In this document: piece after piece, positions 5,519 to 50,529 of the stretch
How positions within the stretch are numbered: the stretch's first letter is position 1
How the letters are laid out: every line of letters starts with the position of its first letter
Assembly: GCA_963702005.1 (NCBI GenBank)
Contig: OY969696.1
Span: 2,496,001 to 2,560,000 of the forward strand
Reading direction: 5' to 3'
DNA from: Candidatus Aminicenantes bacterium
GTDB taxonomy: Bacteria > Acidobacteriota > Aminicenantia > Aminicenantales > JAFGBC01
DNA length: 64,000 nt
Made by a program: the position numbers and the translations under genes
The notes under the pieces: generated by a model
What the model saw: the letters and a program-made list of their open reading frames with translations, nothing else
Told to the model about the DNA's origin: nothing
Databases searched by the model: none

Positions 5519-5816
5519 GGGCCGCGGCCCGGGCGATCCCCAGGCTGACGAGGAAAATGATGAGGCACGCCGCGAGCGGATCGGTCTCCTTGAAAAGAAT
5601 CTCGGCCAGGCGCAGGAAGAATTCGTATTTCAGGACGTAGAGGCAGAAGAAAAAGCCGGCCACGAGCGGCGCGATGACCCGGAGCGAAACGCGGACTCCA
5701 ACCCGGAGATGAAAAAGAAAAAAGGCCGAGCCGGGCGCCAAACCCTCGACGCTCATGGAAGCCCTGAGTACTGCAAGGCTGGGTAACGTCGGCGAACGGG
5801 TCACCTGTTCCTTCAA
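5508..5816 (-). pseudogene. Probable 5' fragment of a membrane-protein gene, ending at the tricorn stop and carrying an in-frame mini-element near its start
   Basis: Two to three hydrophobic segments, then an abrupt end overlapping the convergent tricorn 3' end; residues TRSPTL...VEG derive from the repeat at 5737-5803. Confidence 0.45.
5737..5803 (-). mobile_element. Miniature TGAC-bounded element, short form, copy A
   Basis: Minus strand TGAC-CCGTTCGCCGACGTTACCCAGCCTTGCAGTACTCAGGGCTTCCATGAGCGTCGAGGGTT-TGGC; 60/67 identical to 38115-38181; both ends shared with 49340-49451. Confidence 0.75.
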
Positions 5817-5885
5817 TCGTCTTTTTCCACTATAATATCCATTCCGGACGCGAGTTCCTATTCGTTTCTTTAACGACGGAATCCC

Positions 5886-7772
<1,887 letters not shown>

Positions 7773-7872
7773 AGCGTGGACCGAGACGCGGCGCAGGGGC
7801 GCGGAGTTGACTTTGAAAAAATGCTCTGATATACATTCCCTCTGAGCAGGATCGGGAATAGAACGCCTTGAT

Positions 7873-8727
7873 ATGAACTCTCCCGGGCCTAGGAATTGCG
7901 GTGACCGGCCTGCGCGTCGTTTTCATCTCTCGGCAATTCCATTCGGTTTTATCATCCTTCTCGGGATCTCACTCCTCCCCGTCGCCTGCTCGCGCGGCGC
8001 GTCCCGGCGCGGGCTCACCCTGGCCGGATCGACCAGCATCCAACCCTTCGCCGACCGCTGGGCCGAGATTTACATGAAGATCCATCCGGACCGGATCGTC
8101 AACGTCCAGGGCGGCGGGTCGAGCGCCGGAATCCAGGCCGCCCGGAGCGGGGCCGCCCAGATCGGGATGTCCTCGCGGGAGCTCAAGCCGGACGAGAAGG
8201 ATCTGACCGAATACATCGTGGCCCGCGACGGCCTGGCCATCGTCGTCCATCCCCGGAATTCTCTGCGCGGTATCGGGCTGGATAAAATCCGCGACATTTT
8301 CGCGGGACGGATCAAGACTTGGCGGGAGTTGGGGCAGGGGAGCGGCGCGATCACCGTCGTAACACGCGAGGAGGGCTCGGGGACGCGGGGCGCGTTCCAG
8401 GAGCTCGTCATGCACAAAGACAGGATCGATCGGGAAGCCATCGTCGAAGACTCCAACGGCACGGTCCGGGCCATCGTGGCCCAGGATCCGCGCTCGATCG
8501 GCTATATATCGCTCGGCCTCGTCGATAAAACCGTCGAGGCGCTCGAACTGGACGGGGTCGAAGCCAGCGACGCCAACATCCTGGCCGGCCGCTATCCCCT
8601 CGTCCGCCCCTTCCTATTCCTCAGCAACGGCCCGCCCGGCGCCGAGGCGCAAGCCTTCATCGATTTCGTGCTGTCGACGGACGGTCAGGACCTGGTCGAA
8701 AGCGGAGGCCTGATCCGGGCCCGCTGA
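7873..8727 (+). CDS. pstS: Phosphate ABC transporter substrate-binding lipoprotein
   Basis: Lipobox-like PVAC, GSTS, GGGSSAG, REEGSGTR, YPLVRP; first gene of the pst operon; exact start uncertain. Confidence 0.92.
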   Translation: MNSPGPRNCGDRPARRFHLSAIPFGFIILLGISLLPVACSRGASRRGLTLAGSTSIQPFADRWAEIYMKIHPDRIVNVQGGGSSAGIQAARSGAAQIGMSSRELKPDEKDLTEYIVARDGLAIVVHPRNSLRGIGLDKIRDIFAGRIKTWRELGQGSGAITVVTREEGSGTRGAFQELVMHKDRIDREAIVEDSNGTVRAIVAQDPRSIGYISLGLVDKTVEALELDGVEASDANILAGRYPLVRPFLFLSNGPPGAEAQAFIDFVLSTDGQDLVESGGLIRAR

Positions 8728-8736
8728 GGACGACCC

Positions 8737-9600
8737 ATGACGCGACTGGAACGCAACGACCGTCTCATAAAGCTCGGTCTTCTGATGGTCGCTTTTTCGG
8801 CCGTGTCCATCCTGGTCGTCATTACGATTTTCATCTTTTCGGAAGGGATGCCGATCATGTTCAAATACGGGCTGCGCCAGTTCCTGCTCGGCCTGAATTG
8901 GTATCCGTCCGAGAAAAGCTTCGGCCTTCTCCCCATGATCGTGGGCTCCCTGTTCGTGACATCGGGTGCGCTCCTCGTCGGAGTTCCTACCGGCCTGGCC
9001 TGTGCGGTCGTCCTAACCCAGTTCGCCTCGAAGAGGCTGGGCCGGATCCTGAAGCCCGTCATCGAGCTCCTGGCCGGGATTCCCTCCGTTGTCTACGGAT
9101 TCATCGGAATCGTCGTCATCGTTCCCTTCATCCGAGAGAACTTAGGTGGGCCGGGGCTGTCGGTCCTGGCTGCTTCGCTGGTCCTGGGCATCATGATCCT
9201 CCCGACCATCATCAGCATCTCGATCGACGCTTTCCAGGCCCTGCCGCCGACCTACCGGGAAGGCTCGATCGCGCTGGGGGCCACGGTCTGGCAGACGACC
9301 CGGATGGTCCTCGTCCCGGCCGCGCGCTCCGGGATCATCGCCGCCATCATCCTCGGCATGGGGAGGGCCATCGGCGAAACGATGGCCGTCATCATGATCG
9401 CGGGCAACGCGGCCGCTATCCCGGGGTCGCCTTTGGCTCCGGTCCGGACCCTGACTTCGAACATCGCCCTCGAAATGGGCTACGCCAGCGGCGAGCACCG
9501 CGAGGCCCTGTTCGCGACCGGCGTCATCCTGTTCATCATCATCATGGTCCTCAACACGCTGGCCAACTGGACTTCGTCGCGCCGCCGGAAGGGATCCTAA
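8737..9600 (+). CDS. pstC: Phosphate ABC transporter permease PstC
   Basis: ELLAGIPSVVYG and GRAIGETMAV motifs; operon context. Confidence 0.94.
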   Translation: MTRLERNDRLIKLGLLMVAFSAVSILVVITIFIFSEGMPIMFKYGLRQFLLGLNWYPSEKSFGLLPMIVGSLFVTSGALLVGVPTGLACAVVLTQFASKRLGRILKPVIELLAGIPSVVYGFIGIVVIVPFIRENLGGPGLSVLAASLVLGIMILPTIISISIDAFQALPPTYREGSIALGATVWQTTRMVLVPAARSGIIAAIILGMGRAIGETMAVIMIAGNAAAIPGSPLAPVRTLTSNIALEMGYASGEHREALFATGVILFIIIMVLNTLANWTSSRRRKGS

Positions 9601-9603
9601 ACG

Positions 9604-10440
9604 ATGGGTCTGCGTCCCCGACTCGAGCAGAAGGCCGCCCAGGTCGTGCTCTGGACGCTCACCCTGACGACCGTGCTCATTCTGTTCTTCATCATCGTCT
9701 TCATCCTCCGCAAGGGCCTGCCCATGCTTAACCTCGAATTCCTAACCCGGAACCCGGAGGACATGGGGCGCTCGGGCGGAATCTTCTCGACGATCGTCGG
9801 GACGCTGGCCCTGACCCTGATGGCCGTCCTGATCGCGGCGCCCCTCGGCGTCGGCACGGCCATCTTCCTGACGGAGTACACTTGGGAGGGCCGCCTGACG
9901 CGGATGATTCGTTTCGGAGCCGAATGCCTGGCCGGAATCCCGTCGATCCTGTTCGGGTTGTTCGGGTTCATCCTGTTCGTGACCAAGCTCAAGCTCGGCT
10001 GGTCCGTCATCAGCGGGGGGCTAACTCTGTCTTTTATGATCCTGCCCACGATCATTCGTACCAGCGAAGAAGCGATCCGGAGCGTGCCGGCGTCCTATCG
10101 CGAGGTCAGCGCCTCGTTGGGCTGCACAAAGTGGCAAACAGTGACCCGGGTGGTCCTGCCGTCGGCTCTGCCGGGCATCATGACGGGCGTCATCCTTTCG
10201 ATCGGCCGCAGCATCGGCGAGACGGCGGCCGTCATCTTCACGGCCGGGAGCGCTCTGCGCATTCCGACATCGATATTTTCTTCGTCGCGGACGATGGCCG
10301 TCCACTTCTACATCCTGGCCCGGGAAGGGATCTCGATGCCCAACGCCTACGGAACGGCCGCCGTCCTGGTCGTGACCATCCTCTTGATCAACCTTGTATC
10401 CTACTATCTCATGCACCGCTTCATAAGGAAATATTCTTAG
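9604..10440 (+). CDS. pstA: Phosphate ABC transporter permease PstA
   Basis: LAGIPSILFGLFG, LPTIIRTSEEA, GRSIGETAA. Confidence 0.94.
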   Translation: MGLRPRLEQKAAQVVLWTLTLTTVLILFFIIVFILRKGLPMLNLEFLTRNPEDMGRSGGIFSTIVGTLALTLMAVLIAAPLGVGTAIFLTEYTWEGRLTRMIRFGAECLAGIPSILFGLFGFILFVTKLKLGWSVISGGLTLSFMILPTIIRTSEEAIRSVPASYREVSASLGCTKWQTVTRVVLPSALPGIMTGVILSIGRSIGETAAVIFTAGSALRIPTSIFSSSRTMAVHFYILAREGISMPNAYGTAAVLVVTILLINLVSYYLMHRFIRKYS

Positions 10441-10450
10441 GACCCTGGGA

Positions 10451-11218
10451 ATGAAGACAAGCCGGGAACCGCTCATCCGCGTCAGGGAGTTCAGCCTGAA
10501 GACGGAATCGGTCCGGATCCTGAACCGCCTGACCTTGGACGTCGAGCCGAACGAGATTCTGGGTATCATCGGGCCGTCCGGGAGCGGCAAGACCTCATTT
10601 CTCCGCTGTCTGAACCGACTCAACGACCTCGTTCCGGGCTATCAGGCCGAAGGGGAGATCATCTTCGGCGGCCGGTCGATCCTGGGTCCCGAGGTCAATG
10701 TCGTCGAGTTGCGCCGCAAGCAGGGGATGGTGTTCGCGACGCCGGTCCCCCTGCCGCGCTCCATCTTCGAGAACGTCGTCTTCGGCGCCCGCCTCTCCGG
10801 CGTCCGGGGGCGGCAGAAGCTCCTGGAGCTGGCCGAGGAGAGCCTCTGCCAGGCCGGGCTGTGGGATGAAGTCCGGGAGCGTCTTGACGAGAGCGCCCTC
10901 AGGCTTTCGGGCGGTCAACAACAGCGCTTATGCATCGCTCGGATCCTGGCCCTGAGGCCGGAGGTCATCCTGCTCGACGAGCCGACCTCGGGACTCGACC
11001 CTATCTCGACCCTCAAGATCGAGGAGTCCCTGCACAAGCTCCGCGCGGCCTATACGATCATACTGGTCACCAACAACGTCAAACAGGCGGCCCGGGTCGC
11101 GGACCGGACGGCGTTTTTCCTGTCGGGCGAGCTCATCGAGATCGGGGCGACCGCCAAAATATTCACCGCTCCCGACGACCCGAAAACCAACGACTACATC
11201 TCGGGACGGTTCGGATGA
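10451..11218 (+). CDS. pstB: Phosphate ABC transporter ATP-binding protein, copy 1 (atypical Q- and H-loops)
   Basis: [37 protein letters not shown]-terminal YISGRFG. Confidence 0.9.
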
Positions 11219-11973
11219 CGACTCCCATCATCGAGGTCAAGACGCTCTCGCTCTGGTATGGGAAGTTTCGGGCCCTCCAAGACGTGACGATCGACATCGA
11301 AATCAACCGGATCACGGCCTTGATCGGCCCCTCCGGCTGCGGCAAGTCAACATTCCTGCGCTCCCTCAACCGGATGAACGACCTCATCGAGAGCGTCCGG
11401 ATCGCGGGGACGGTTCTCGTTCAGGGGCAAGATATTTACGCCAAGGGCACCGACCTCCTCGCTCTCCGCCAGAACGTCGGCATGGTCTTCCAGCGTCCCA
11501 ATCCGTTCCCGCTGAGCGTCGCCGACAACGTGATTTACGGGCTTCGCGTTCACGGTATCACGGACAAGACGGTCCGGGACGAACGGCTCCAGCGGAGTCT
11601 CGAGGCCGTCCATCTCTGGGGGGAGCTCAAGGATGGGCTGGGCCGGAACGCCCTCTCGCTTTCGAGTGAACAACAGCAGCGGCTGTGCATCGCCCGGCTG
11701 ATCGCCGTCAAGCCCGAGGTCCTGCTCATGGACGAGCCCTGTTCGGCCCTTGACCCGATCGCGACGGCCCGGATCGAAGAGCTCATGGCCGAACTCAAAA
11801 AGCGCTATTCGATCGTCATCGTGACCCACAACATGCAGCAGGCCGCCCGCGTTTCCGACACGACGGGGTATTTCCTGCTGGGCGAACTGGTCGAGGTCGG
11901 CGCGACGCCGCAGATCTTCACCGCTCCCTGCGATTCAAGAACTGAGGATTATATCACCGGCCGCTTCGGATGA
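11215..11973 (+). CDS. pstB: Phosphate ABC transporter ATP-binding protein, copy 2 (atypical signature motif)
   Basis: ATGA overlap with the upstream pstB; [42 protein letters not shown]. Confidence 0.92.
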
Positions 11974-11980
11974 GAGGCCT

Positions 11981-12580
11981 ATGCCTACAAATATTGTTAA
12001 TGTCGGATACGACTCAACCAACTACTACATCATCGCCGGCGCCGCCAAAACCATGCTGCTGGTCGATTGCGGATGGCCCGGCACCCTAGGGAAACTGAAG
12101 AGCCGGTTCAAGGGGAAGGGGATCGAGCTTAATCAAGTTCAATACCTTTTAGTGACTCACTATCATCCCGACCACGCGGGCCTGACCCAAGAATTGCGGA
12201 ATGCGGGGCTGAGGCTCATACTCATGGATACTCAAGTGCCGTTTGTCGGACAGTTGAAGAAAATCATGAAGCCGAACAGCGGATATATTGATATCGTGGT
12301 TGAGGGCAGTTTTGTCCTCAAGAGCGCAGACAGCCGGGCCTTCTTGAAGCAAATCGGAATAGACGGCGTGATTTTCGCAACTCCCGGACATTCTCCCGAT
12401 AGCGTGTCTTTGATACTGGATGAGGGGATAGCGTTTACCGGCGACCTGACCCACGAATCCATGTTGTCGGAGGATGATGTCAGCGCCAGGGAAAGCTGGC
12501 ATCAAATCCGTCGACGCGGCATTCGGATTGTCTATCCAGCTCACGGCGGCGTGTTGCACCGGCAGCAGGATGGGAGATAG
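11981..12580 (+). CDS. MBL-fold metallo-hydrolase
   Basis: THYHPDH, TPGHS, FTGD, PAHG motifs; visibly lower GC than its flanks. Confidence 0.88.
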   Translation: MPTNIVNVGYDSTNYYIIAGAAKTMLLVDCGWPGTLGKLKSRFKGKGIELNQVQYLLVTHYHPDHAGLTQELRNAGLRLILMDTQVPFVGQLKKIMKPNSGYIDIVVEGSFVLKSADSRAFLKQIGIDGVIFATPGHSPDSVSLILDEGIAFTGDLTHESMLSEDDVSARESWHQIRRRGIRIVYPAHGGVLHRQQDGR

Positions 12581-12650
12581 GGTCAAGAAAAGCTTCCCGC
12601 TTTATTTCCTTACCGCCTTGGCTATATAATCTTCATCAAAGAGGATGACC

Positions 12651-13448
12651 ATGAAGAAAATCGTCTTGGGACTGTCATTAGCACTGGTTTTGAGCCTGGC
12701 GGCGTCCTGCATTATAGCCGTCGTGGACACGTCAGAGTCGGGGATGGATGGGACCGCTTACAGCTACCGGAAGTCCGCTCCATTTTCCGCGGGCGGAAAG
12801 GTCTCCCTGGTCAACACGAACGGCGACATCCTGGTCCGTGGCTGGGACGACGCCCACGTCGAAGTCTTGGCCAGGGAGCCCGGCAACTGGCCCAGGCCGC
12901 GCGGGTTGCGGATCTCCGGGATCGGCTCCCTGGAGCCCGAGATTCGGTTCGACCTCAGCGATAATACCCTCAAGCTCCAATGCCCCGATGAGGGGGAAAA
13001 AGACAGCGTCTATGATTTCGAGATCCGCGTCCCGCGTTCCGTTAAAATCGAGGGCATCCGGAACGGCCAAGGGACTATTCGCGTCTCCAATGTCTACGGT
13101 CGCCTGGAAGTCGAGGCGGAGCGGGGCGAAGTTCATGTCGAGAATTTCTCCGGCGTCCTCGACGTCTCGCTCGAAGAGGGAGATGTCCAGGCCGAGGTCT
13201 TGGACATGAGGTCCGAGGACGAAATCCGGATTGAGGTAGGGGAGGGCGATGTTGAGATCTTCCTCCAGGATCCGGTCGGAGCGACGATAGAGGCCGAGAC
13301 CGGAGACGGCGAAGTCACGAGTGAAATGGAATTCGGCCAGCCGCTTCCGGCGAAGAAGCTTACGGTAAAGCCCGAGAGCCCGAACGGCCGCATCATTCTC
13401 AAGACCGACAGCGGGGATATCCGGATCCGAAAGTCCAGCGGAGAATAA
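12651..13448 (+). CDS. Lipoprotein with DUF4097/adhesin-like beta-strand repeats
   Basis: Lipobox LAASC; repeated GxIxV beta motifs ending KTDSGDIRI. Confidence 0.7.
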   Translation: MKKIVLGLSLALVLSLAASCIIAVVDTSESGMDGTAYSYRKSAPFSAGGKVSLVNTNGDILVRGWDDAHVEVLAREPGNWPRPRGLRISGIGSLEPEIRFDLSDNTLKLQCPDEGEKDSVYDFEIRVPRSVKIEGIRNGQGTIRVSNVYGRLEVEAERGEVHVENFSGVLDVSLEEGDVQAEVLDMRSEDEIRIEVGEGDVEIFLQDPVGATIEAETGDGEVTSEMEFGQPLPAKKLTVKPESPNGRIILKTDSGDIRIRKSSGE

Positions 13449-13463
13449 CGAGGAGGGTATCCG

Positions 13464-14279
13464 ATGGAAGAGAAAAGAAAGGTCATCGTCACCGGACTCA
13501 TCTTTCTCGGCCTTCTGATCGTCGGCGGCGGCCTTTACTACTTCCTCGTCCTAGACCGCTTCCATGAGCCCTCCAAGACCCAGGCCGGCGAAGCCGTCCC
13601 GGGGCTGGCCGAGGAGAAAATCGCCGCAAGTGAGGCCGAAGAGCGCTCTCCGGTCGAGTTGGACAAGAGCGACGAATATGTCAGGGCCAACGTCCAAGGA
13701 TTGTCCTCCCAACCAGGCTTTGCCGCCTGGCTTAAAATAAGCGGACTCATCAGGAGGTTTGTCGCGGCCGTGGACAACGTCGCCAACGGTGTAAGCCCCA
13801 GACCTCAGCTCGAAATCCTGGGGCCCGATAAGGCGTTCGCCGCCGTCAAGAAAGGGCGGCAGCTCCATATCGATCCCGCGAGCTACGGCCGCTACGACAA
13901 CGTGGCCGACGTTTTTTCCTCCCTGGACACGGCCCAGAGCGTCAAGGCCTATCGGAGCCTGAGGCCCCTGATCCGGGACGCCTATCGCGAGCTGGGCTAT
14001 CCCACTCAGGAATTTCAGGACACGCTCGTCCGGGCCATTGACGAGCTGCTCCAGGTCCCGCTCGTCCGGGGTTCCATCGTAATTGAAAAACAAGTCCTGA
14101 CTTACATAATCATTGACCGGACCCTGGAGGAGCTGAGCCCGCCCCAAAAGCATCTCCTCCGGATGGGCGCGGAAAACGTCGAGATCATCCAGTCCAAGCT
14201 GAGGGAATTCGCAACGGCCCTGGGAGTTCCGGCCGACCGCCTGCCTAAGAGCCGAAACTATACGCCGCGCTCTTACTAA
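13464..14279 (+). CDS. DUF3014-like membrane-anchored protein
   Basis: N-terminal TM helix; LIRRFVAAVDN, SYGRYD, AYRELGYP, QKHLLRMG motifs. Confidence 0.75.
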   Translation: MEEKRKVIVTGLIFLGLLIVGGGLYYFLVLDRFHEPSKTQAGEAVPGLAEEKIAASEAEERSPVELDKSDEYVRANVQGLSSQPGFAAWLKISGLIRRFVAAVDNVANGVSPRPQLEILGPDKAFAAVKKGRQLHIDPASYGRYDNVADVFSSLDTAQSVKAYRSLRPLIRDAYRELGYPTQEFQDTLVRAIDELLQVPLVRGSIVIEKQVLTYIIIDRTLEELSPPQKHLLRMGAENVEIIQSKLREFATALGVPADRLPKSRNYTPRSY

Positions 14280-14318
14280 TCGGCGCGCCCTGGGAAGAAC
14301 GAGCGCTTCGAGAGATCT

Positions 14319-15701: not shown

Positions 15702-15724
15702 TTCCTTCGGAATTCGCAGCCCTC

Positions 15725-19642: not shown

Positions 19643-19719
19643 TGGTCGGGACGGGCGGATTCGAACCGCCGACCCCATGCACCCCAAGCATGTGCGCTAC
19701 CAGGCTGCGCCACGTCCCG
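19643..19719 (-). tRNA. tRNA-Pro(GGG)
   Basis: CGGGACG acceptor stem, D-loop CCTGGTA, anticodon arm CATGC-TTGGGGT-GCATG, GTTCGAATC T-loop, encoded CCA; 77 nt. Confidence 0.97.
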
Positions 19720-30541: not shown

Positions 30542-32482
30542 TTAAAACACCTTGATCGCGCAGCCGGTCTCGAAGGTCCGTCCCCGCCAAGGGAATCCGG
30601 GCTCGGTGTAATAATATTTATCCATGAGGTTCGTGACCTTGACGAAAATCTCGACGATGGAAAAAGCGTAGGAAGCGACGGCGTCGAAGGTCAAATAGGA
30701 CGGGATATTTAGGAGCTTCCGCGTCCCGGTGTTGTACCAATAGGATTTCGAGGCGTAGAGGCCGAAGACGGACACGTTCAAGGACTTGAGGGGCCGGACC
30801 CGGGCCTCGAAGTTCAGGTTGTGGTCGGACAGGACATCGAGGGGGCGATCATCGGATTCGTTCCTGTGGTCGAGGTAGGTGTAGTTCAAGGACAGCTGGA
30901 CGGCCGGCCAGGCTTTCTGGACTTGGATCTCGGCGCCGTTGATGTGGGCCTTGCCGATGTTCCGGTACTGCCTCGTGCCGTCGGGGAGGAGGGCCGTATC
31001 GATCATGTCCCTGAGCGTGTTCACGAATAAGGCCCCGCTCAGATAAATGGCCTTGTTGTAAGTCGCCCCAAGCTCCCAGGACCGCGCCCTCTCGCTGAGA
31101 AGGCCGGGGTTTCCCGAGGACGGCGAATAGAGGGCCCTCATGCTCGGGAACTTGGACTTGCCCGAGAAGGAGAGATGCGCCTCGAAATCGTCGCCGGGGG
31201 CGTACTTGATGCCGACCAGGGGGTTGAGCTTCGAGGAGGCCGAGCCCTTGAACTTGGAAAGCCGGTCCCAGCTGGCGCCGGCGATGATCTTCCAGTCTTT
31301 GATGAGGGTGACGTGGTCCTCGGCGGCCAGCGAGAGCGTCCCCTGGTCGAACTTGGTCCAGGAAAGTCCGATGTCGTCCTGGGTTCGGGCCTCGTCCTTT
31401 TGGTAGTAGAGGCTGAGCTTAAGGCTGTTCCAGTCGTTGATGAAAAGATCGCCCAGGCCGAATACCCCGTAGACGGAGTTGTTGAAAGTGCTTTCGGATT
31501 GGCGTACTAAAAATGCGGAATCCTTGTACCAGTCGAGGCTGTTCTGATAGTTGACGTAGAAGGCCCGGAAGCGCAGGGTCGAGTTATCGCCCAAGGCCGT
31601 ATAGCCTCCGGCGTTCAGGGACGTGCGGTCCCAATCCTTGAAGCGCCAATAGCGGGGTTTGCCGAAGAGGTCGGGAGGCATGCCGTAGGCCGATGTGTAG
31701 TAGCCGGCGTTGACCATGAACTCGGTCCGGGAGGAGGGAATGTAGTAGAGCTTGGCGTTGAGGTTCAGGCGTTCGTAGTCGCTGTTGGAGCGGTCCGTCC
31801 GTCCCAGTTTGGGATCTTTATAAACGAATCCGTCGGACCCCTGGTAGAGGGCCGTTCCTACGAAGCCGAGACTCTTCCACTGGGCGGAGGAGTCCAGTCC
31901 CAGGCTGCGCGTCGTCCGGTCGCCCAGGGAAGCGCTCAGGCTCAAGGAGGGCTCCTGAGCGGGACGGCGGGTTATAACGTTGACGATCCCGCCCATGGTG
32001 TTGGGGCCGTAGAGGACGGAGGAGGGACCCTTTGTAATCTGGAGGGATTCGATCTGACCGGCCGACACGGTCTTGAGGTCGAAGGAGCCGTAGTAGGGTT
32101 CCACGACGGGGACGCCGTCCACGAGAAGGGCGATCCGCTTGGAATCGATGCCCCTGATCTTGAGCGTGTACTCGTCTTTGTTCCCGACCGTGACGTTAAC
32201 GCCGGTCGCGAACTTGATGGCTTCGGCCAGGTCGCGCGGCTTGAGAGCCTCGATCGACGTTTTCGCGATCCCGGTCACCGTAGCCAGCTCGACGTCCTTG
32301 GGCGCCTTGCCCACGACGAGTATTTCCTCGGTGATCTTGGGCTGTTGTTTTTCCTTCTCTTCTTGGGATGATTGGCCGGATTGGTCCTGAGACGAGAGGA
32401 CCGGCGAGGGCGTGACCATGAGGAGAGAAACAACGCCGATAAGGACGAGAGCGGGGAAGAAACGGTTGCGGGTTTTCATCAT
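30542..32482 (-). CDS. TonB-dependent outer-membrane receptor (BtuB/CirA-like size)
   Basis: Signal peptide, TonB box EEILVVG, plug IRG...LLVDG...KGPSSVLYG..GGIVNVIT, C-terminal NLMDK.Y...GRTF...F. Confidence 0.93.
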   Translation of the reverse strand: MMKTRNRFFPALVLIGVVSLLMVTPSPVLSSQDQSGQSSQEEKEKQQPKITEEILVVGKAPKDVELATVTGIAKTSIEALKPRDLAEAIKFATGVNVTVGNKDEYTLKIRGIDSKRIALLVDGVPVVEPYYGSFDLKTVSAGQIESLQITKGPSSVLYGPNTMGGIVNVITRRPAQEPSLSLSASLGDRTTRSLGLDSSAQWKSLGFVGTALYQGSDGFVYKDPKLGRTDRSNSDYERLNLNAKLYYIPSSRTEFMVNAGYYTSAYGMPPDLFGKPRYWRFKDWDRTSLNAGGYTALGDNSTLRFRAFYVNYQNSLDWYKDSAFLVRQSESTFNNSVYGVFGLGDLFINDWNSLKLSLYYQKDEARTQDDIGLSWTKFDQGTLSLAAEDHVTLIKDWKIIAGASWDRLSKFKGSASSKLNPLVGIKYAPGDDFEAHLSFSGKSKFPSMRALYSPSSGNPGLLSERARSWELGATYNKAIYLSGALFVNTLRDMIDTALLPDGTRQYRNIGKAHINGAEIQVQKAWPAVQLSLNYTYLDHRNESDDRPLDVLSDHNLNFEARVRPLKSLNVSVFGLYASKSYWYNTGTRKLLNIPSYLTFDAVASYAFSIVEIFVKVTNLMDKYYYTEPGFPWRGRTFETGCAIKVF

Positions 32483-32483
32483 T

Positions 32484-32589
32484 CCTCCTTTTCAAATTCG
32501 GAAGGCCGGGCCGTTTCCAGCCGGACCCTATCGGCCTGAGGGCTTGTCACGTCGTTTTCGACGGGATTTAGCTCCGCAGGCTCGGAGAA
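32484..32589 (-). ncRNA. Moco/Tuco RNA motif (putative molybdenum/tungsten cofactor riboswitch)
   Basis: Minus strand TTCTCC-GA-GCCTG...CTAA...CAGGC-CGAT-AGGGTCCGGCT-GGAAAC-GGCCCGGCCT-TCCGAATTTGAAAA-GGAGGAA; P1 UUCUCC pairs over the RBS; matches recalled Moco hallmarks. Confidence 0.78.
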
Positions 32590-32697
32590 GCCAAGAGTCT
32601 AACACAGACCGTGACATCTTAGCAACTCCGGCGATGGCGATTTTTGACTTCTTTTATTAGCTGTGCTAATAACCACTCGAGAGGGCCGAGCGCGGCT

Positions 32698-36200: not shown

Positions 36201-38039
36201 TTAGGTGAGCTTGGCGATTTTTTCTACGACCTCGGCCTCGTCGGCCAGACCCAATGCGACGGCCGTCGCCTTGGTCGGGATGCCCCGCTTGTCATAGCCG
36301 CGTATGTCGTAATAGTGCTGGAGGAGGCCGTCGTACTTGTCGTATTCGAGGCATTTTCCGGCGATTGGGCCCTCGCTGTCGACGTTGGAGGGGTCGAACC
36401 AAACCGCGGGCGGATAGTCCAGCTTGCGCTCGGTCCGCGGATATTCCCGGAGCCAGAAGAGCTTCATCATGGCATAGATCCGGTCGGAGACCCTCCAGAA
36501 ATCGTCGAGCGTCCAGTCCAGGCCGCTGACCAGGTTGAAGTACTTGGGATAATTCTCCAGGCTCCAGCCGAGCTCGATCCAGGGGAAGCGGCAGGAGACG
36601 ATGGACTCGAACAGCCCGCCCCGGATCCTCTGAAGGTCGATGACCTTCTGGGCTTTCTCGGGGCCGTAGGAATCGCGCGACGTTTGCTTGAGCTCGAAGG
36701 TGATAACCCAGGATTCTTTGTGATGGGCGCCGATCGGGGAGACGCCGAAGGCCAGGGCCATGCCGGGGATGAACTTGCAGTTGTAGGCGGCGACCTCGAG
36801 TCCCTTGACCTGCATGGCGTAGGCCTCGGAATTCTTGCCGATCGTCCGCGCCGCCCGCAGCGAGCCTTCGGCCAGGAGGTTTCCGATTTCACCCTCGCGG
36901 CGGGCGATCTTTCCCAGAAGCTCCTTGGCCTTGGCGGCGTCGCCGAACTTGAAATCGCCGGCGACGGCGCCCTGATCGATGGCGTCGGCGTAGAAGCTCA
37001 GGACGCAGCCGCCCGACATGGTGTCGATCCCGTAGTCGTCGCAAAGATAGTTGAGCGAGGCGACTTGGGCCAGGTCGAAGATTTCCAGGTTCGGCCCGAG
37101 CAGGGCGACGTTTTCGTAATCGAGCTCGGACTCGCGCCCCTCGGCGTCGTGGATGGCGATGCCGCAGCGCATCGTGCAGTTCGGGCAGCCGTAGGTGGCG
37201 ACCCGGGCGTTGTTGAGTCGCTCGCCGTCTACTTTCCAGGCGTCGGCGTGAAAGGTCTTCCGGAAATTGCGGACGGGGAGGGCGGCCACCTCGTTGCACC
37301 AGGCCAGGACGCCGTTCGTGCTCTGGATCGACCAGCCGGTCTCCTTGTCGATCTGGTGGACTTTTTTGAGGTCGTCCGAGCCGATCTTCTTCATGGCCTC
37401 CGGGTCGGCCTGGGGAATCGGTTTCGTCCCCTTGACGACGATAGCCTTGAGGCGCTTCGAGCCCATGACGGCGCCCATGCCCGTCCGGCCGCCCGACCGG
37501 CCCTCGAGGCTGCGGACGACGGCCCAGCGGACCATCCTTTCGCCGCCCTGGCCGATGTTGAGGACGCCGATGCCTTTCCCATATTTCGCGTAAATCCAGT
37601 CGTTGGTTTCGTAGGTTCCTTTGCCCCAGACGGCGTCGGCGGGAAGGAACTCGACCTTGTCGTCTTCGATGGCCAGCAGGGTCGGGCGTTCCGCCCGGCC
37701 TTCGACGATCAAGGCGTCATAACCGGCCTTGCGGAGATGCTCGGCGACCCGGGTCCCCAGGTTTCCGTCGCCGTAGCCGCCCGTGCTGGGCGACTTGCCT
37801 GCGACGACGGCCTTGCCCGTATTGGGTGCGGGGATGCCGGCGATCGGGCCGAGGGCGACGATGAACTTATTGTCCGGGCCGAGGGGGTCGACGCCGGGCG
37901 CGAGCTCGTCGAAGAGGATCTTGGCGGCGAAGCCGCGGCCGCCGATCCATTTGCGGGCAAAATCCTCGTCGAAATGATCGACCTTGGAAGTTTTATGGGT
38001 CAGGTTGACCCTCAGGATGCGTCCCGTCCAGCCGTTCAT
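36201..38039 (-). CDS. aor: Aldehyde:ferredoxin oxidoreductase (tungsten-pterin AOR family)
   Basis: GRILRVNL, GGRG, KSPSTGG, GRTGMGAVMGSK, CxxCxxxC (CPNCTMRC), CDDYGID, GIPT; true start MNGWTG at 38039 with GAGGT RBS. Confidence 0.94.
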   Translation of the reverse strand: MNGWTGRILRVNLTHKTSKVDHFDEDFARKWIGGRGFAAKILFDELAPGVDPLGPDNKFIVALGPIAGIPAPNTGKAVVAGKSPSTGGYGDGNLGTRVAEHLRKAGYDALIVEGRAERPTLLAIEDDKVEFLPADAVWGKGTYETNDWIYAKYGKGIGVLNIGQGGERMVRWAVVRSLEGRSGGRTGMGAVMGSKRLKAIVVKGTKPIPQADPEAMKKIGSDDLKKVHQIDKETGWSIQSTNGVLAWCNEVAALPVRNFRKTFHADAWKVDGERLNNARVATYGCPNCTMRCGIAIHDAEGRESELDYENVALLGPNLEIFDLAQVASLNYLCDDYGIDTMSGGCVLSFYADAIDQGAVAGDFKFGDAAKAKELLGKIARREGEIGNLLAEGSLRAARTIGKNSEAYAMQVKGLEVAAYNCKFIPGMALAFGVSPIGAHHKESWVITFELKQTSRDSYGPEKAQKVIDLQRIRGGLFESIVSCRFPWIELGWSLENYPKYFNLVSGLDWTLDDFWRVSDRIYAMMKLFWLREYPRTERKLDYPPAVWFDPSNVDSEGPIAGKCLEYDKYDGLLQHYYDIRGYDKRGIPTKATAVALGLADEAEVVEKIAKLT

Positions 38040-38114
38040 TGTGTGTACCTCGATTGGTAGGATGGTCGATCGTTCGAACCGTTCTTCTATTCGATAGCAC
38101 AGGACCATAGCCAA

Positions 38115-38181
38115 GTCAACCCCTCGACACTCATAGAAGCCATGAGTACTGCAAGGCTGGGTAGCGTAGGCGAACGGGTCA
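38115..38181 (-). mobile_element. Miniature TGAC-bounded element, short form, copy B (intergenic, aor/pspC)
   Basis: Minus strand TGAC-CCGTTCGCCTACGCTACCCAGCCTTGCAGTACTCATGGCTTCTATGAGTGTCGAGGGGT-TGAC; TTGAC at both ends; internal hairpin ACTCAT-7 nt-ATGAGT. Confidence 0.8.
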
Positions 38182-39575: not shown

Positions 39576-39597
39576 GACAGTCCTTCATCCCTTCCGG

Positions 39598-39626
39598 TTG
39601 ACTTATCCGGGCTAATTTTGTATGGT
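39598..39626 (+). promoter_or_regulatory. sigma70-like promoter for the dnk-panBCD operon
   Basis: TTGACT-17 bp-TATGGT with a TG just upstream. Confidence 0.55.
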
Positions 39627-39640
39627 TGAGGCAAAATTCG

Positions 39641-40321: not shown

Positions 40322-40376
40322 ATAGACTTTACCTCAATCCCGGACTCAGCCGGGATGGGGAGAAAGGAAAGCGCCG

Positions 40377-42103: not shown

Positions 42104-42107
42104 GATC

Positions 42108-42464
42108 ATGAAACGAACGCTGCTCAACTCTAAAATACACCAGGCCGTCGTCAGCGAAGCCGACCTCGAATACGAGGGAAGCCTCAAGGTCGACGAAGGC
42201 CTTCTCCAGGCCGCCGGGATGATTCCCTACGAACGGGTCGAGGTCTACAACCTGACGAACGGCGAGCGGTTCGCGACCTACCTCATCAAAGGGGAGAAAG
42301 GATCGGGGATCATTTCCGTGAACGGCGCGGCCGCCCACAAAGCCAAGCCCGGGGACCGGATCATCATCACGACCTATGTCCAACTCGAAGAGGACGAGAT
42401 CGAATTCTTCATGCCGCGAGTCGTCCTCGTCGATCCGGACAACCGCGTCTCGGAGATCCGCTGA
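42108..42464 (+). CDS. panD: Aspartate 1-decarboxylase
   Basis: SKIH, YEG/S self-cleavage site, NGERFATY, NGAAA. Confidence 0.96.
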   Translation: MKRTLLNSKIHQAVVSEADLEYEGSLKVDEGLLQAAGMIPYERVEVYNLTNGERFATYLIKGEKGSGIISVNGAAAHKAKPGDRIIITTYVQLEEDEIEFFMPRVVLVDPDNRVSEIR

Positions 42465-42487
42465 GGAGCCCGGGCCGGGCCTGCCCG

Positions 42488-42766
42488 TCAGCGGAGCGCC
42501 CAGGCCTTGAGGACCTCGTAGTCGACCTCGCCGCAAAGGAGGTCGTTCGTCTCGGTATTGAGGAAGGTCGGAGTCCGGAGCTGGCCGCCGCATTTGGGCG
42601 CGATGACGGTCCTGTAGGACCTCATCAGGTCGGCGTTTTTCTCGTCGTGCCAGATTTCGAGCCGCTCCGGGGCGACGCCGGTTTCCTTCTCGAGCCGGTC
42701 GACCAAGGGGAGCATCCTCTGGCAGTGGGGGCATTCCCGGGCGTAAAAGAGGATAAGCTTCTTCAT
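42488..42766 (-). CDS. Thioredoxin/glutaredoxin-like protein
   Basis: ECPHC active site, cis-Pro motif TPTF; AGGAGG RBS. Confidence 0.85.
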   Translation of the reverse strand: MKKLILFYARECPHCQRMLPLVDRLEKETGVAPERLEIWHDEKNADLMRSYRTVIAPKCGGQLRTPTFLNTETNDLLCGEVDYEVLKAWALR

Positions 42767-42770
42767 GGTC

Positions 42771-43199
42771 TTACCTCCTGACAAAAAGCCCGCACCAGCA
42801 TTCTCCGGCCGCGCGCCAGGTGTCATGGGCCAGGAAATTACAGGGGCAGACCATCTTGAGATCCTCGGCCGGGTCCTTGCAGATAAGCCGGCAGGGACAA
42901 TACTTCAGGCCGTAACGGCGTTCGTTGGCGAAGATCCCCTCGAGGAGCATCCGGACCTTCTCCTCGTCGGGAGAGACATGAAACTCGTTGTCCCGGGCGA
43001 AGGCCTCAATCGCGGCGCGAAACTCGGTCGGCCCCATGGCCGGGACCCGGGCGGCCGCCATCGCGTCCGCCATGATCTTCGCCTCGGCCGCCGTGACCTC
43101 GACGTAGGCGTTCCGGACCAGGCAGGTCGGGCAGACCTCGGGGGGACGGAGCCCGACGTGGATGTCGTTGCAGACGAAACAGCGCCAATACCGCTTCAT
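42771..43199 (-). CDS. Ferredoxin:thioredoxin-reductase catalytic-subunit-like protein with an N-terminal rubredoxin-like domain
   Basis: WRCFVC...CPTC, then YCPCR...VCPC...CWCGLF; GGAGG RBS. Confidence 0.85.
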   Translation of the reverse strand: MKRYWRCFVCNDIHVGLRPPEVCPTCLVRNAYVEVTAAEAKIMADAMAAARVPAMGPTEFRAAIEAFARDNEFHVSPDEEKVRMLLEGIFANERRYGLKYCPCRLICKDPAEDLKMVCPCNFLAHDTWRAAGECWCGLFVRR

Positions 43200-43212
43200 G
43201 GCCCCTCCTAGG

Positions 43213-43926
43213 TCATAAAGACTCGAGGAAGGCCAGCAGATCCTGGATCTGCTCTTCGGACAACGTATTAAAGGGAGGCATGTTTCCAATCGGACGGATA
43301 AGCTGGGATCGGACGTTATCCAGGGTCGCCGGCCTTCCGCTCGCGGGGAGCTTGTCTTTCTTGAGGATACCCTTGAGCCCTGGACCCGCGGCGGACGCCT
43401 CGTTTTGGGCATGGTGACAGCCCGCGCAATGAGTCGCGAACAAGGCGGCGCCCCGCCGGGCGGTATCCTGGAGGCGGGCAGGATCGCCCGATAGGACCCG
43501 GGTCTGCCGATGGAGCGGAACATTTCTTACGATGGTGAATCCGGCCGAGAGACAGAATATGAGAAAGGCCAGAAAGAATACCGTCATCCCCATGACGGGG
43601 ACGTGCTTAAGGAATTGACGGTAAAACCTGATAAACAAAACCTTTAAAGTCAGGATCGCGACAAGAGCGAGCCCCAGAACCGCATGAAGGACTCCCCGCA
43701 GCGGAAGACCGTCCCCGGCCGCGCGGACGATCTTGGCGCCGAGCAAGGCCAGAATCAGGAAGAGGACGGCGAAGATGAACCCGGCCGTCCTGTGGATTCT
43801 CCTCAGGACGAGGGGATCGGTCTTATGTTCGGCGCGCCCCATCAGACTCAGCATGGACAGCAGGGCGGTTAAGCCCGCCGTCATTAGGACCGTCCCCAGA
43901 ATGAGTTTGATGACATGGAGGGACAT
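43213..43926 (-). CDS. Membrane protein (4 TM, conserved His) with a C-terminal cytochrome c domain
   Basis: TM helices carrying His (IHR, LHA), CAGCH heme motif, distal Met in GNMPPF. Confidence 0.82.
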   Translation of the reverse strand: MSLHVIKLILGTVLMTAGLTALLSMLSLMGRAEHKTDPLVLRRIHRTAGFIFAVLFLILALLGAKIVRAAGDGLPLRGVLHAVLGLALVAILTLKVLFIRFYRQFLKHVPVMGMTVFFLAFLIFCLSAGFTIVRNVPLHRQTRVLSGDPARLQDTARRGAALFATHCAGCHHAQNEASAAGPGLKGILKKDKLPASGRPATLDNVRSQLIRPIGNMPPFNTLSEEQIQDLLAFLESL

Positions 43927-43937
43927 GGCCGACCTCG

Positions 43938-48021
<4,084 letters not shown>

Positions 48022-48240
48022 TTGTCTATTTTTAACAAAAACACCCCGCCTTGTCAATTTGGCCGGGGGCCGGAGAAGGTATTCCGCCAAAAACCGCCCG
48101 ATCGGGTTGTATCCCTTTTTTAATTTTCCCGTGATAGTCGACCGAACGAGTCTCATATTCCTGCAGGAACTGCTTGAGATGATGGAACAGCACTCGATAG
48201 AGGACGGTCCGCGCCTAGGCTTACCTGAGCCCGTAAAATC

Positions 48241-48270
48241 TTGACAAAAGGCTTAATCTGTAAGCATAAT
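48241..48270 (+). promoter_or_regulatory. sigma70-like promoter for the LTA-synthase-family gene
   Basis: TTGACA-18 bp-CATAAT. Confidence 0.6.
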
Positions 48271-48357
48271 CACCGAATAAGTCAAGGCGAGCAATGGAAA
48301 TGCCAGACAGTCATGTGACCAGCGGTGTCCGGTTTTGAAGCATGATAAGGGAAAAAA

Positions 48358-50529
48358 GTGTCAAAAGAAAAAACGGTTTTTCCTTTTGTGCTCATCACGT
48401 TCTCCATTTTCCTTCTATTCTTCCTCAGCATAAGAATTTATCTCGTTTATTCAGGAAATGTTCCAGGAAGCTTCTCGTTTTCTGAAGTCCTGGCCGGTTT
48501 CCTGGAAGATGTTTTTTTGGCTTCCGCCTTGTCTCTTTCAACCCTTCTGACGCTCTCCCTAAGCAAGGCCCTCTATCTTCTGCTCGTTTTTCCCCTGAAC
48601 TTGATCGTCGTCATAACCTGCTATGCAAACCTCCAGTATGTGAATTTTTTTGGAGAAAACCTCGCGTTGTTTGATCTTGAATATATCAGGAACCTCGGCA
48701 GCGTCTGGAAATTTTCGTTGAATCACATTTGGATTCGACGGGGAGAACCCTTCTTTCTCATCCTGCCCCTTTTAGCGATCTTGGCCGAGCTTGTTGTATT
48801 GCTGAAAACAAAGATCAGAAAATATCCGGCGGCGAAATTTCTGATTTTATCATCGGCCTTGCTCGGCCTTTCGCTAGCGACATTTTGGGGAGGAGAAGCC
48901 CTGGCCAATAAAGAGAATAAACTGGGTTTTCATCAGAACAATTATTTTGTGGAGATGATCAAGGGGATCCCTCGTCTTCGTAATTTCATCAAGGCTCGCC
49001 AGGATATCAAAAAGCTTAAAATAATAGCCAAGGAGCAAGAAACGAGCCCGGGTCATCAGGAGGCGTTGAATCACAATCACGAAGAATTGAGCCTGGGAAA
49101 ATTATATCTGAAGGAACGACCCGTCCCTCTTCCCGAGGATTATGTTTGGTATAGTGAAAATTATCCTTTTATCAAGATTCCCAGAAGAGACGCCGTCCGT
49201 ATGGGTCTTTTATCCGGAGGCGAAGAGGCCGATAGGACGGCCTTCCGCACTCCAACCAAGCTTGTCCGCAACGTTGTTTTTATTTTCATGGAAAGCTTCC
49301 GCTCCAAAGAGATCGACCTGTTTGGCAGCCCTTATTCTCTGACCCGTTCGCCGACGCTAAGCCCTGCCTTTCAAGGCGGGGATGAGAAGCGAGGCTCAGG
49401 GTTAACCCCTAACAAGCCCCGGCCTTCAAGCCGGGGAGTCGAGGGGTTGACTCCTAATTTTGACGCTCTAGCTTCTAAGGGTATTTTATTCAATAATTTT
49501 TATGGACATTCCGATTTAACCGCCGGCGCGGAGTTCTCAACGATATGTTCCTTCTATGAAGTCTTCAAAGGAATCGATGCCATGAGGGGTCATCCCCAGG
49601 ATGCCCTTTTTTCTTTGCCGGAAATATTGAGTCTCCTCGGATACACAAATTACTGGATCAATTCCTGGTCGGCCGATTTCGATAATTCCAGGAATTTTTT
49701 CAGCCTCCATGGCAATTTCCAGTTCGTCGATAAATATGCTTTTCCCCTGAATGCAGCGAAGGCGGGGGGGCATTATGATGATGAAGAAATTATGAAGATG
49801 GCCGTCGAAACTATGGATAAAGCCCGGAGACCGTTTTTTGCCATGATCTTGACGGCCACCAATCATATGCCCTACCGGGTGCCGGAAAAGAAATTTGAGC
49901 TCGGGCTGGGGGACGGTCTTTTCAGCCGCTATTTGGACACCTTTCATTATTCAGATTACGCCTTGGGCCGTTTTTTCGAGCTGGTTCGAAACAAAGATTA
50001 TTTCAAGAACACCCTTTTCTTTGTATTCGCGGACACGGGCGATAATCGATCGATCAAGGCCATGAAATCGCTCCCTGAGTACTTCGAGAATATTTATCAT
50101 ATTCCCCTTCTGATCTATGATCCTTCGGAGGAAACAGGAAGGGTCGTTAAGGAAATCGGCGGCCAGGTGGATATCGCTCCGACCGTTTTGGACCTGCTGG
50201 GGATACAAATCGCCACTCCTTTTGTCGGGCAAAGTCTGTTGCAGAAAAGAATGACTCCCTTTTATTTATCCTATCACGGCCGGGACAATCCCTCCGTATT
50301 TTTTTCTAGTGAATCTTTGCTCTTACGCTATAACCTTGAAAATGAACAGTGTGAGGCATTTGATCGGAAGAACGGCGAAAGAGTCGATTTAAGCCCGAGC
50401 GAACGCCAGAAAATTATTTCCACGATCAGGGAGATGGTCACATTGGGGGATTGGTCATTTTTTAATGACAAGATCTGGGATCCCAAAATCAATCAATTTT
50501 ACAAGAACCTCTATAAAAAAGGCTCCTAG
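48358..50529 (+). CDS. LTA synthase / phosphoglycerol transferase (sulfatase superfamily) with a 36-aa in-frame insertion
   Basis: About 5 N-terminal TMs; NVVFIFMESF, TPNFD.L, catalytic Thr in DLTAGAEFS, TNHMPY, YSD..LG, QVDIAPT; lower GC than flanks. Confidence 0.85.
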   Translation: MSKEKTVFPFVLITFSIFLLFFLSIRIYLVYSGNVPGSFSFSEVLAGFLEDVFLASALSLSTLLTLSLSKALYLLLVFPLNLIVVITCYANLQYVNFFGENLALFDLEYIRNLGSVWKFSLNHIWIRRGEPFFLILPLLAILAELVVLLKTKIRKYPAAKFLILSSALLGLSLATFWGGEALANKENKLGFHQNNYFVEMIKGIPRLRNFIKARQDIKKLKIIAKEQETSPGHQEALNHNHEELSLGKLYLKERPVPLPEDYVWYSENYPFIKIPRRDAVRMGLLSGGEEADRTAFRTPTKLVRNVVFIFMESFRSKEIDLFGSPYSLTRSPTLSPAFQGGDEKRGSGLTPNKPRPSSRGVEGLTPNFDALASKGILFNNFYGHSDLTAGAEFSTICSFYEVFKGIDAMRGHPQDALFSLPEILSLLGYTNYWINSWSADFDNSRNFFSLHGNFQFVDKYAFPLNAAKAGGHYDDEEIMKMAVETMDKARRPFFAMILTATNHMPYRVPEKKFELGLGDGLFSRYLDTFHYSDYALGRFFELVRNKDYFKNTLFFVFADTGDNRSIKAMKSLPEYFENIYHIPLLIYDPSEETGRVVKEIGGQVDIAPTVLDLLGIQIATPFVGQSLLQKRMTPFYLSYHGRDNPSVFFSSESLLLRYNLENEQCEAFDRKNGERVDLSPSERQKIISTIREMVTLGDWSFFNDKIWDPKINQFYKNLYKKGS
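49340..49451 (+). mobile_element. Miniature TGAC-bounded element, long form (net 108 bp), copy C, in frame inside a CDS
   Basis: TGAC at 49340 and 49448; hairpins CCCTGCC-TTTCAA-GGCGGGG and CCCCGGC-CTTCAA-GCCGGGG; central GGGTTAACCC palindrome; GC-rich patch in an AT-richer gene. Confidence 0.85.

Follow-up and report, generated by a model that had tools for sequence, protein, structure and literature searches.

Miniature elements inserted 3' of TTGAC in a Candidatus Aminicenantes genome

Background

Among described systems, the elements presented here come closest to the derivatives of the IS200/IS605 insertion sequences (IS). The part of PMC5027513 that we draw on describes how the top strand of IS200/IS605 elements leaves as a circle of single-stranded DNA, targets the lagging-strand template, and goes in 3' of a tetra- or pentanucleotide which is specific to the element and required for the next round. 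Repetitive extragenic palindromes (REPs) are thought to be moved in trans by a single-copy Y1 enzyme (RAYT, TnpA-REP), according to the sections of PMC6006769 and PMC3333891 used here. Two more kinds of repeat come up in the portion of PMC10969869 that we cite. The Rickettsia palindromic elements (RPEs) are small repeats that lie in frame inside unrelated genes and add a peptide segment, while promoter-bearing MITEs (transposable elements of miniature size with inverted repeats), such as the Correia elements, and IS ends contribute promoter sequence to the downstream gene. This work concerns a window of 64,000 nucleotides (G000:C1:2496001-2560000) from a Candidatus Aminicenantes genome, three short elements in that window which share both ends, and the family they belong to. 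G000 is the source genome, a single 4.31-Mb contig with 60% GC.

The family has much in common with the IS200/IS605 derivatives known as palindrome-associated transposable elements (PATEs). Like PATEs, its members are inserted 3' of a specific pentanucleotide without duplication, as seen at empty sites and in a GTCAC repeat, and they end in a cleavage-site-like motif of their own. They have no terminal inverted repeats, and the 112-bp class has subterminal GC-rich hairpins (other classes have a single hairpin). One strand is active, with a bias to the lagging-strand template, and the 3' region that resembles a cleavage site has a pairing partner in a segment 5' of the right hairpin. Unlike PATEs, they have no parent IS with these ends and no cognate TnpA in the genomes searched, many of their classes have a single or different hairpin, their target reads as the core of a -35 box, and their cores are mosaics of nested modules. 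The pairing at their 3' end also differs from IS200/IS605, being a 9-bp canonical stem and not a 4-nt guide.

Insertion next to TTGAC

The three window copies, with the gene that holds the third, are these (copy numbers follow the window, and positions on the source contig are marked as such):

5737..5803, minus strand: copy 1, 67-bp class, in the spacer between plus-strand genes 2267-5518 and 5886-7772
38115..38181, minus strand: copy 2, 67-bp class, intergenic, including its left TGAC at 38181-38178
48358..50529, plus strand: host gene of copy 3, a membrane-anchored sulfatase-family protein of 723 aa (Pfam PF00884)
49339..49343, plus strand: target pentanucleotide CTGAC retained left of copy 3, codons CTG AC-, Leu-Thr
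49344..49451, plus strand: copy 3, 112-bp class (108 nt without the target TGAC), inside the sulfatase gene

The original prediction, made from the window alone, held that these three elements have common ends, and they do. The window contains exactly three occurrences of a left-end 20-mer (5784-5803 on the minus strand, 38162-38181 on the minus strand, 49340-49359 on the plus strand), where shuffles lead one to expect 0.01, and a right-end 14-mer is found at the same three places with 0 mismatches. The predicted lengths and similarity were borne out as well. The copies measure 67, 67 and 112 bp, or 63, 63 and 108 net of one TGAC, and the two short ones are identical at 60/67 positions. Copy 3 consists of the left linker CCGTTCGCCGACGCTAAG, hairpin 1, a segment GCTCAGG followed by GTTAACCCC, hairpin 2 and the 3' end AGTCGAGGGGTTGAC, in that order. 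When the genome was searched for both ends, 121 left-right pairs within 600 bp turned up, plus 17 orphan left ends, and other Aminicenantes genomes carry the family too. Removal of weak or chance pairs left 118 pairs for analysis.

The elements are mobile, because genomes of the same genus have empty sites and sulfatase orthologues lack the insert; on this the original prediction was right. The site of the copy at 599301-599484 of the source contig is empty in two same-genus genomes, where it reads TTGACA, 17 nt and a -10 box; the filled site reads TTGAC, element, TTGAC. A second promoter holds a 74-bp copy in the source genome, a different composite of ~240 bp at the same TTGAC in G001, and nothing in G002, both of the same genus. 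Copy 3 is translated in frame and gives the sulfatase-family protein 36 additional residues. Eight orthologues from the protein database, 674-720 aa long and 47-71% identical, all lack precisely this stretch and read ...YS-LTPN...; among the genomes of 40 relatives no orthologue was found at E<=1e-30. Contigs from four wetland metagenome runs enter copy 3 from both sulfatase flanks, and other copies in these runs part from it at 49340 and 49451/2, which are the limits of the repeat. The contigs of the four runs contain no empty-allele joint at copy 3, and contigs lose rare variants.

The two ends are not equivalent. The left pentamer is TTGAC in 87/118 copies and the right one in 110/118, the two differ in 34/118, and the base preceding the left TGAC is T in 89/113. 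Left variants CTGAC, ATGAC and GTGAC have no mirrored copy on the right. Copy 3 is a case of this, with CTGAC on the left and TTGAC on the right, so there was no target duplication there. In 7/118 copies the left tetranucleotide is TCAC, and their right ends are GGGTTTGAC (in one, GGGTTTTAC), i.e. TGAC or TTAC. The TCAC copy at 596432 of the source contig lies in another repeat family, five uninterrupted copies of which read ...CTACACTTTGTCAC and then TTTTT (GTCAC), none of them GTGAC; its empty site in G001 reads GTTAC followed by TTTTTCC. The empty sites, the uninterrupted GTCAC repeats and the unmirrored left variants together argue that the left tetranucleotide is the original target DNA.

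In the strict sense the element extends from CCGTTCGCC to a terminal TTGAC of its own and is inserted 3' of the target with no target-site duplication. Its left junction is target TTGAC followed by CCGTTCGCC..., its 3' end is ...GAGGGGTTGAC, and its tips are direct repeats, not inverted ones. The copies had been predicted to be bounded by TGAC. This is true insofar as TTGAC stands at most ends, but the left one is target and the right one belongs to the element. We are very confident of the general rule, which is insertion in one orientation 3' of TTGAC (loosely NTGAC, with NTCAC in one sub-lineage), without duplication, of elements with conserved ends and their own terminal TTGAC.

This evidence bears on the idea of a classical cut-and-paste MITE, in which a DDE transposase recognises TGAC and duplicates the 4-bp target. 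Such an origin would account for the TGAC at both ends of most copies, and the genome does contain several DDE-type IS families, two adjoining elements. We nevertheless think it very unlikely. Left and right pentamers disagree in the 34 copies just mentioned, all seven left-TCAC copies have TGAC or TTAC on the right, and no IS family has the same ends. A replication-strand bias of 83%, described below, would also be unexpected from double-strand cut-and-paste. The comparison with MITEs made in the original prediction therefore does not stand in its classical form, since there are neither terminal inverted repeats nor a target-site duplication.

Composition and distribution of the family

The commonest lengths are 111 bp (15 copies), 82 (14), 112 (12), 74 (6), 110 (6) and 67 (4), with a tail to ~390 bp. 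The parts conserved among them are a linker of 18 nt at the left (CCGTTCGCCGACGCTAAG), one or more GC-rich hairpins and the 15-nt right end AGTCGAGGGGTTGAC. A minimal 57-bp form with only the left linker, one hairpin and the right end occupies 7 separate loci. The cores are mosaic in composition, with a small number of hairpin modules nested one within another, and most of these modules are confined to the elements (e.g. modB 14 inside and 0 outside, modD 18 and 0, modC 53 and 3). Fourteen copies of the 111-bp subfamily have a mean identity of 98.6%, which implies recent spread.

The exact left-end pattern is present in many metagenome-assembled genomes (MAGs) titled Candidatus Aminicenantes, where the 112-bp form is the commonest (24/82 paired copies). 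The few left-end matches in other phyla come without a right end and look like chance. A 14-mer of the element, GACCCGTTCGCCGA, occurs in 29/151 genomes of the order, and its spread is patchy: 98 in the source genome, 118 in G001, 64 in G106, 1 in G002 and 5-10 in a few genomes. At the gathering threshold Rfam reports only a Moco (molybdenum cofactor) riboswitch and a tRNA in the whole window, both elsewhere than the elements, and at E<=1 copy 3 has two matches at chance level (12-14 bits). No plasmid or phage match to the elements was found. A search of the literature on Aminicenantes repeats and transposable elements gave no description of the family, and the portion of PMC4381525 at hand does not describe these repeats. 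The prediction of a site-specific miniature family without its own transposase is thus supported, and so is the view that the family, with shared ends, variable cores and no transposase in any member, was previously undescribed.

Like REPs, bacterial interspersed mosaic elements (BIMEs) and REPINs (REP doublets forming hairpins), these are short, highly repeated, mostly extragenic hairpin elements of mosaic composition. Unlike REPINs they form no inverted REP doublets and are not symmetric, so the predicted likeness to REPINs did not hold; nor does any element lie beside the three RAYT-like genes of the genome.

Five tandem junctions between elements in the genome share one TGAC, much as in a cassette array. 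They bring in a different explanation, that a circular form was recombined into the TTGAC core by a recombinase acting in trans, either a tyrosine recombinase as for integron cassettes or an IS110-type bridge-RNA recombinase. In integrons the attC sites are recombined in folded, single-stranded form, and the replication strand has an effect on this. Integron cassette excision dynamics are the subject of the part of PMC5371416 referred to here. The core sequence is found at both ends, the joined ends would form an imperfect palindrome (GTCGAGGGG-TTGAC-CC..CGAC), and an IS110-family element is active in the genome. However, this IS110-like element has a GT dinucleotide core and sits inside the elements, which makes it a guest and not the mover. 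The left variants CTGAC, ATGAC and NTCAC persist while the right stays TTGAC, and no integrase gene was noticed beside any array, though no integrase search was made. On balance we regard recombination of a circle as unlikely.

Some other repeats and features were seen along the way. A different 111-bp miniature insertion lies at a gene's stop codon at G000:C1:594142-594252 (L128:3143-3253); G001 and G002 lack it there, yet copies at other places in G001 match it at 98-99% identity. A segment of ~3 kb at G000:C1 ~596.6-599.3 kb (L128:5436-8481), between two TTGAC elements, is present in G000 and G002, and G001 has 111 bp instead. The motif ...TTCAATCCCCTTCGCGGGATCCCACGGACGTAAGTCCGTGGAGCTTCAG is repeated at G000:C1:621809, 740872, 1034710, 2603326 and 3577379, and a piece related to it (GGCGCTCCAACG..GTCCGTGGAGCTTCGG) is a module within some composite elements. 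The contig ends, G000:C1:1-1089 and 4308273-4309361, are at least 90% identical over 1089 bp (the megablast filter), which is the overlap of a circular assembly. The tRNA gene of the window is at 19646-19719 (-). Its Moco/tungsten riboswitch (64 bits), at 32470-32598 (-), shares the window with the aldehyde:ferredoxin oxidoreductase (AOR) gene at 36201-38039.

Orientation relative to replication

The gene dnaA lies at 504 kb on the contig. The circular cumulative GC skew is lowest at this point and highest near 2.75 Mb, and both points were set independently of the elements. The top strand of the element is leading-strand sequence, i.e. lagging-strand template, in 98/118 copies (83%; binomial p = 1.5e-13), and in these the family shares with IS200/IS605 the placement of the active strand on the lagging-strand template. 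The controls for orientation gave 53% for genes (1674/3137) and 51.5% for unoccupied promoter-like TTGAC sites (206/400), with a Fisher p of 3e-10. The true IS200 copies of the genome have the same orientation bias, at 9/11.

Placement at promoters

The genome offers 9354 free TTGAC sites and 7670 of them are in called genes, yet 112/118 elements lie outside open reading frames (ORFs). A co-oriented gene starts within 300 nt downstream of the right end in 92/118 copies. In 54/105 copies a TANNNT follows the TTGACN of the element after 16-18 nt, compared with 400/1684 (24%) at other intergenic TTGAC sites and 181/7670 (2.4%) at genic ones. These figures suggest that the 3' TTGAC of the element stands as a -35 box at most copies. 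To judge from the empty sites, the target would already have been the -35 of a promoter and is now replaced by the TTGAC that the element brings. The bias to promoters may come from active targeting or from survival after selection. Like Correia-type MITEs, the element would give promoter sequence to the downstream gene; unlike those elements, which bring whole promoters, it would supply the -35 core only, in place of an identical -35 target.

The window offers one candidate of this kind, at copy 2:

38091..38119, minus strand: candidate promoter using the 3' end of copy 2, with TTGACT at 38119-38114, a 17-nt spacer and TATCGA at 38096-38091

The core of copy 2 is a single hairpin, ACTCATGG..CTATGAGT, and its 3' TTGAC is 75 nt upstream of the true ATG (38039-38037) of the AOR gene. 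The ORF of this gene is over-extended; AFOR_N starts at residue 106, and upstream of that copy 2 is read in another frame. The putative -10, TATCGA, is weak and does not fit TANNNT. Copy 1 is one of the 20 copies that oppose the replication-orientation rule; its 3' end has decayed to TTGGC and its left pentamer is GTGAC. The ORF around it (5508-5816, TTG start, 102 aa) has no Pfam match, and its sequence is unconserved at the corresponding places in G001 and G002. Synteny is broken in both genomes and no clean empty site for copy 1 was found in them, while G001 retains a degenerate remnant resembling a left end.

If most copies lie at promoters, one could suppose that they are structured upstream-promoter, insulator or terminator modules that serve the host, kept by selection and spread by gene conversion. 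The 92/118 copies directly upstream of co-oriented genes would be expected then, as would the 3' end acting as a -35 box and the conservation of the ends across species. We consider this highly improbable. Presence and absence vary at orthologous promoters in same-genus genomes, some copies lie within coding sequences, recent copies are nearly identical, and the spread is patchy (14-mer counts of 98 in G000 and 118 in G001 beside 1 in G002). The host may still make secondary use of elements that are in place.

Copies inside genes

Six copies lie in frame inside ORFs. All belong to the 112-bp class and all are read in one frame:

Sulfatase (copy 3): mid-domain
LpxR protein: mid-domain, the Pfam match being split into two stretches
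MiaB-like protein: directly after Met-Thr, with the UPF0004 match starting right after the element
Fourth protein: after an alpha/beta-hydrolase domain
Two more in-frame ORFs: no Pfam check or match

AF2 models residues 323-366 of the sulfatase, where the insert lies, as coil at a pLDDT (predicted confidence) of ~25, the lowest in a model that is poor as a whole (mean 58.8). The peptide of the element, TRSPTL...VEGLT, also occurs inside unrelated metagenomic proteins, such as a 449-aa protein with histidine-kinase Pfam domains. Among 1.84 billion cluster representatives the peptide has 31 matches (E<=1e-3), and most of these are short ORFs that do no more than cover a copy. The family resembles the RPEs in these six copies and in the spread of the peptide among unrelated metagenomic proteins, a comparison of behaviour and not of sequence. 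It differs from them in that genic copies are a minority (6/118), insertion is NTGAC-specific, and most copies are at promoters.

The original prediction took this further, to a frame-preserving system whose lengths are constrained to multiples of three. Its basis was the net lengths of the window copies, 63, 63 and 108, together with two intragenic copies in the same frame; in fact only copy 3 lies in a supported gene (PF00884). One may add that all six ORF-internal copies are 108 nt and share one frame. Across the genome, however, the net length is a multiple of three in 51/118 copies (p = 0.025), an excess driven by the 82- and 112-bp classes, and it is not in 67/118. Outside ORFs the figure is 45/112 (p = 0.13), and among distinct lengths it is 20/56, which is the chance level. 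The most recent subfamily, at 111 bp or 107 net, is not a multiple of three. A shared frame is what one expects from the codon phases in which NTGAC is available on coding strands: [NTG][ACN] occurs 8203 times and [xNT][GAC] 2840 times, so 6/6 copies in the same frame has p ~0.16. In the reverse orientation the element has stops in all three frames, as read from its sequence. Since distinct lengths are at chance and the frame is as expected, the codon-multiple length is a survivor filter on genic copies and not a property of the system. We give almost no credence to a frame-preserving mechanism.

The search for an enzyme

The window itself contains no Y1 match and no multicopy IS. To that extent the predicted absence of a transposase there stands, with the limit that not every window ORF was scanned with Pfam. 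The multicopy IS of the genome, which was also compared with itself by megablast, comprise 11 copies of IS200, three families of the DDE type (IS481- or rve-like; two adjoin elements) and three copies of an IS110-like element, and none of them shares the ends of the family. An IS91-like Y2 gene has one degenerate match in the genome.

IS200 was considered as the mover and rejected, as its ends differ (3' end ...TTTAC) and it was not found in G106. Its eleven near-identical 615-bp copies, each with a 150-aa Y1 TnpA, are at 11 sites in G000:C1, e.g. 1259993-1260355. They have hairpins CCCCGYGG-CTTG-CCRCGGGG and the 3' end ...ATCTTTAC, and at least 5 of them lie inside a separate palindromic repeat. 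The separate repeat family GGGGTCAAACCTACACTTTGTCAC occurs at ~27 sites in G000:C1 (e.g. 650013, 2037978), often followed by AAAGTG... to make a palindrome, and is a target both for IS200 and for one TCAC-type element.

Like REP/RAYT systems, the genome has RAYT-like Y1 genes, three of them and each in single copy, which score 61-79 bits against the NCBIfam REP-transposase cutoff of 80. Unlike REPs, the family forms no REPtron. Near the Y1 genes of five carrier genomes, this one and four others, no element ends were found, except for one copy near a RAYT-like gene in G001. One of the three genes, c2, was rejected as the mover for want of a phyletic link, being present in 88/151 genomes of the order where the 14-mer is in 29/151.

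The elements themselves appear to serve as landing sites for other sequences. The IS110-family element, with a 343-aa DEDD-type transposase, is at G000:C1:2353923-2355313, 3583722-3585056 and 4076324-4077720. All three copies are within TTGAC elements at the same right-end position (...CATGAG / GT...IS...GT / GTCGAGG), and the same junction recurs in another MAG (L003, L066). For this IS the repeat seems to be a place to land. The element at 2816544-2816654 (-) of the source contig (also L033) has the right end GGGGTGTAC followed by a 356-aa integrase-core transposase gene, IS481-like by eye. The GGGGTGTAC/transposase arrangement recurs in another MAG, and here too an IS may have landed in the right end.

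Folding and the proposed mechanism

Hairpins had been predicted in the cores. When folded as single-stranded DNA, the 112-bp copy forms two strong subterminal hairpins (z = -3.05), in agreement with its predicted two-hairpin core. The 67-bp copies fold no better than shuffles. The 110-112-bp classes have two hairpins and the 57-, 67-, 74- and 82-bp classes have one. In 29 right-end domains from several genomes, GTTAA-CCCC on the 5' side of the right hairpin is the partner of GGGG-TTGAC at the 3' end; the pairing holds in 93% of cells, compared with 33-61% for slid-partner controls. A T.G pair of this stem is found in 27/29 sequences, and on the opposite strand it would be a C.A mismatch. The stem is present in the consensus and is not proven by covariation. 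A guide-like segment that pairs with the target may be present on each side. The left one would read GC[Y]AA where the target is TTGAC, with GC[G]AA in some members of the TCAC sub-lineage, and the right one would be GTTAA-NNNN. The idea of a left guide, with the N of GC[N]AA set against the third base of the target, is only partly borne out, as the G is found in 4 TCAC copies and 1 TGAC copy, although these are one sub-lineage and not independent.

Site-specific insertion at a 3' position without duplication, a single active strand, hairpins and the replication bias make an HUH/Y1-type single-strand mechanism the best fit. We lean, with some reserve, to the whole reading, in which this is a modular, non-autonomous, TTGAC-specific family of at least ~120 copies moved as single-stranded DNA by an HUH/Y1-type enzyme in trans. 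The top strand would move at the replication fork in single-stranded form, on the lagging-strand template, and the transposase would be supplied in trans as it is for IS200/IS605 derivatives and REPs. TTGAC forms the core of the sigma-70 -35 hexamer. At most TTGAC sites within genes an insertion would kill or damage the host, and the surviving copies would be those at promoters, where the 3' TTGAC of the element would take over as the -35 and leave the promoter intact. The 112-bp class, with its 108 added nt and a frame that is open in the (Leu/Met/Val)-Thr phase, could also survive in genes as a 36-residue insertion rich in Gly, Ser and Pro.

Several points weigh against this reading. The enzyme itself was not found: no long copy with these ends, such as one enclosing the transposase or recombinase gene that the original prediction proposed to look for, exists in the genome, and there is no TnpB in it. 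The ends of IS200 are unlike those of the elements, and an IS200-type TnpA is missing from G106, where the 14-mer is present 64 times. No left-end, right-end or module motif lies within 1.5 kb of the three RAYT-like genes, and the distributions of c2 and the 14-mer differ as given above. The folding is uneven too, since the 67-bp window copies give z ~ +0.5 and the hairpin of the 67- and 82-bp classes is a different one, which is unexpected for a Y1 enzyme that reads hairpins. The right-end stem lacks significant covariation (both sides vary in two pairs, and 58/500 shuffles reach as much), and the 111-bp subfamily, with TCAT/ATGA for CCCC/GGGG, needs a 1-nt bulge and is unpaired in the plain register. 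Selection alone could also produce the strand bias, genes were called with a crude home-made finder, and the -35 role is read from sequence alone.

A more specific version is possible, and we hold it only tentatively. The family would be a single-strand system that homes to the -35 TTGAC on the lagging-strand template and pays for its place with a new -35 (a 'promoter safe-haven'), with its target set by guide-like pairing and one class doubling as a 36-residue linker.

Conclusions

The repeats have a practical consequence, in that short-read assemblies are interrupted at them; the G001 assembly consists of ~500 contigs, and contigs from metagenomes stop within the element. If the single-strand reading is true, the Aminicenantes, a bacterial lineage of phylum rank known only from metagenomes, would join the few lineages with more than 100 single-strand-type miniature elements, and there would be a trans-acting enzyme with a defined 5-nt specificity to look for. 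The genic copies are a second, independent case besides Rickettsia of repeats that persist in frame in proteins. The family would also be an example of a mobile element that targets the -35 core of promoters and restores that core on insertion. Such restoration could explain a high copy number at little cost, and through displaced activator or UP sites the elements may rewire the regulation that lies upstream.

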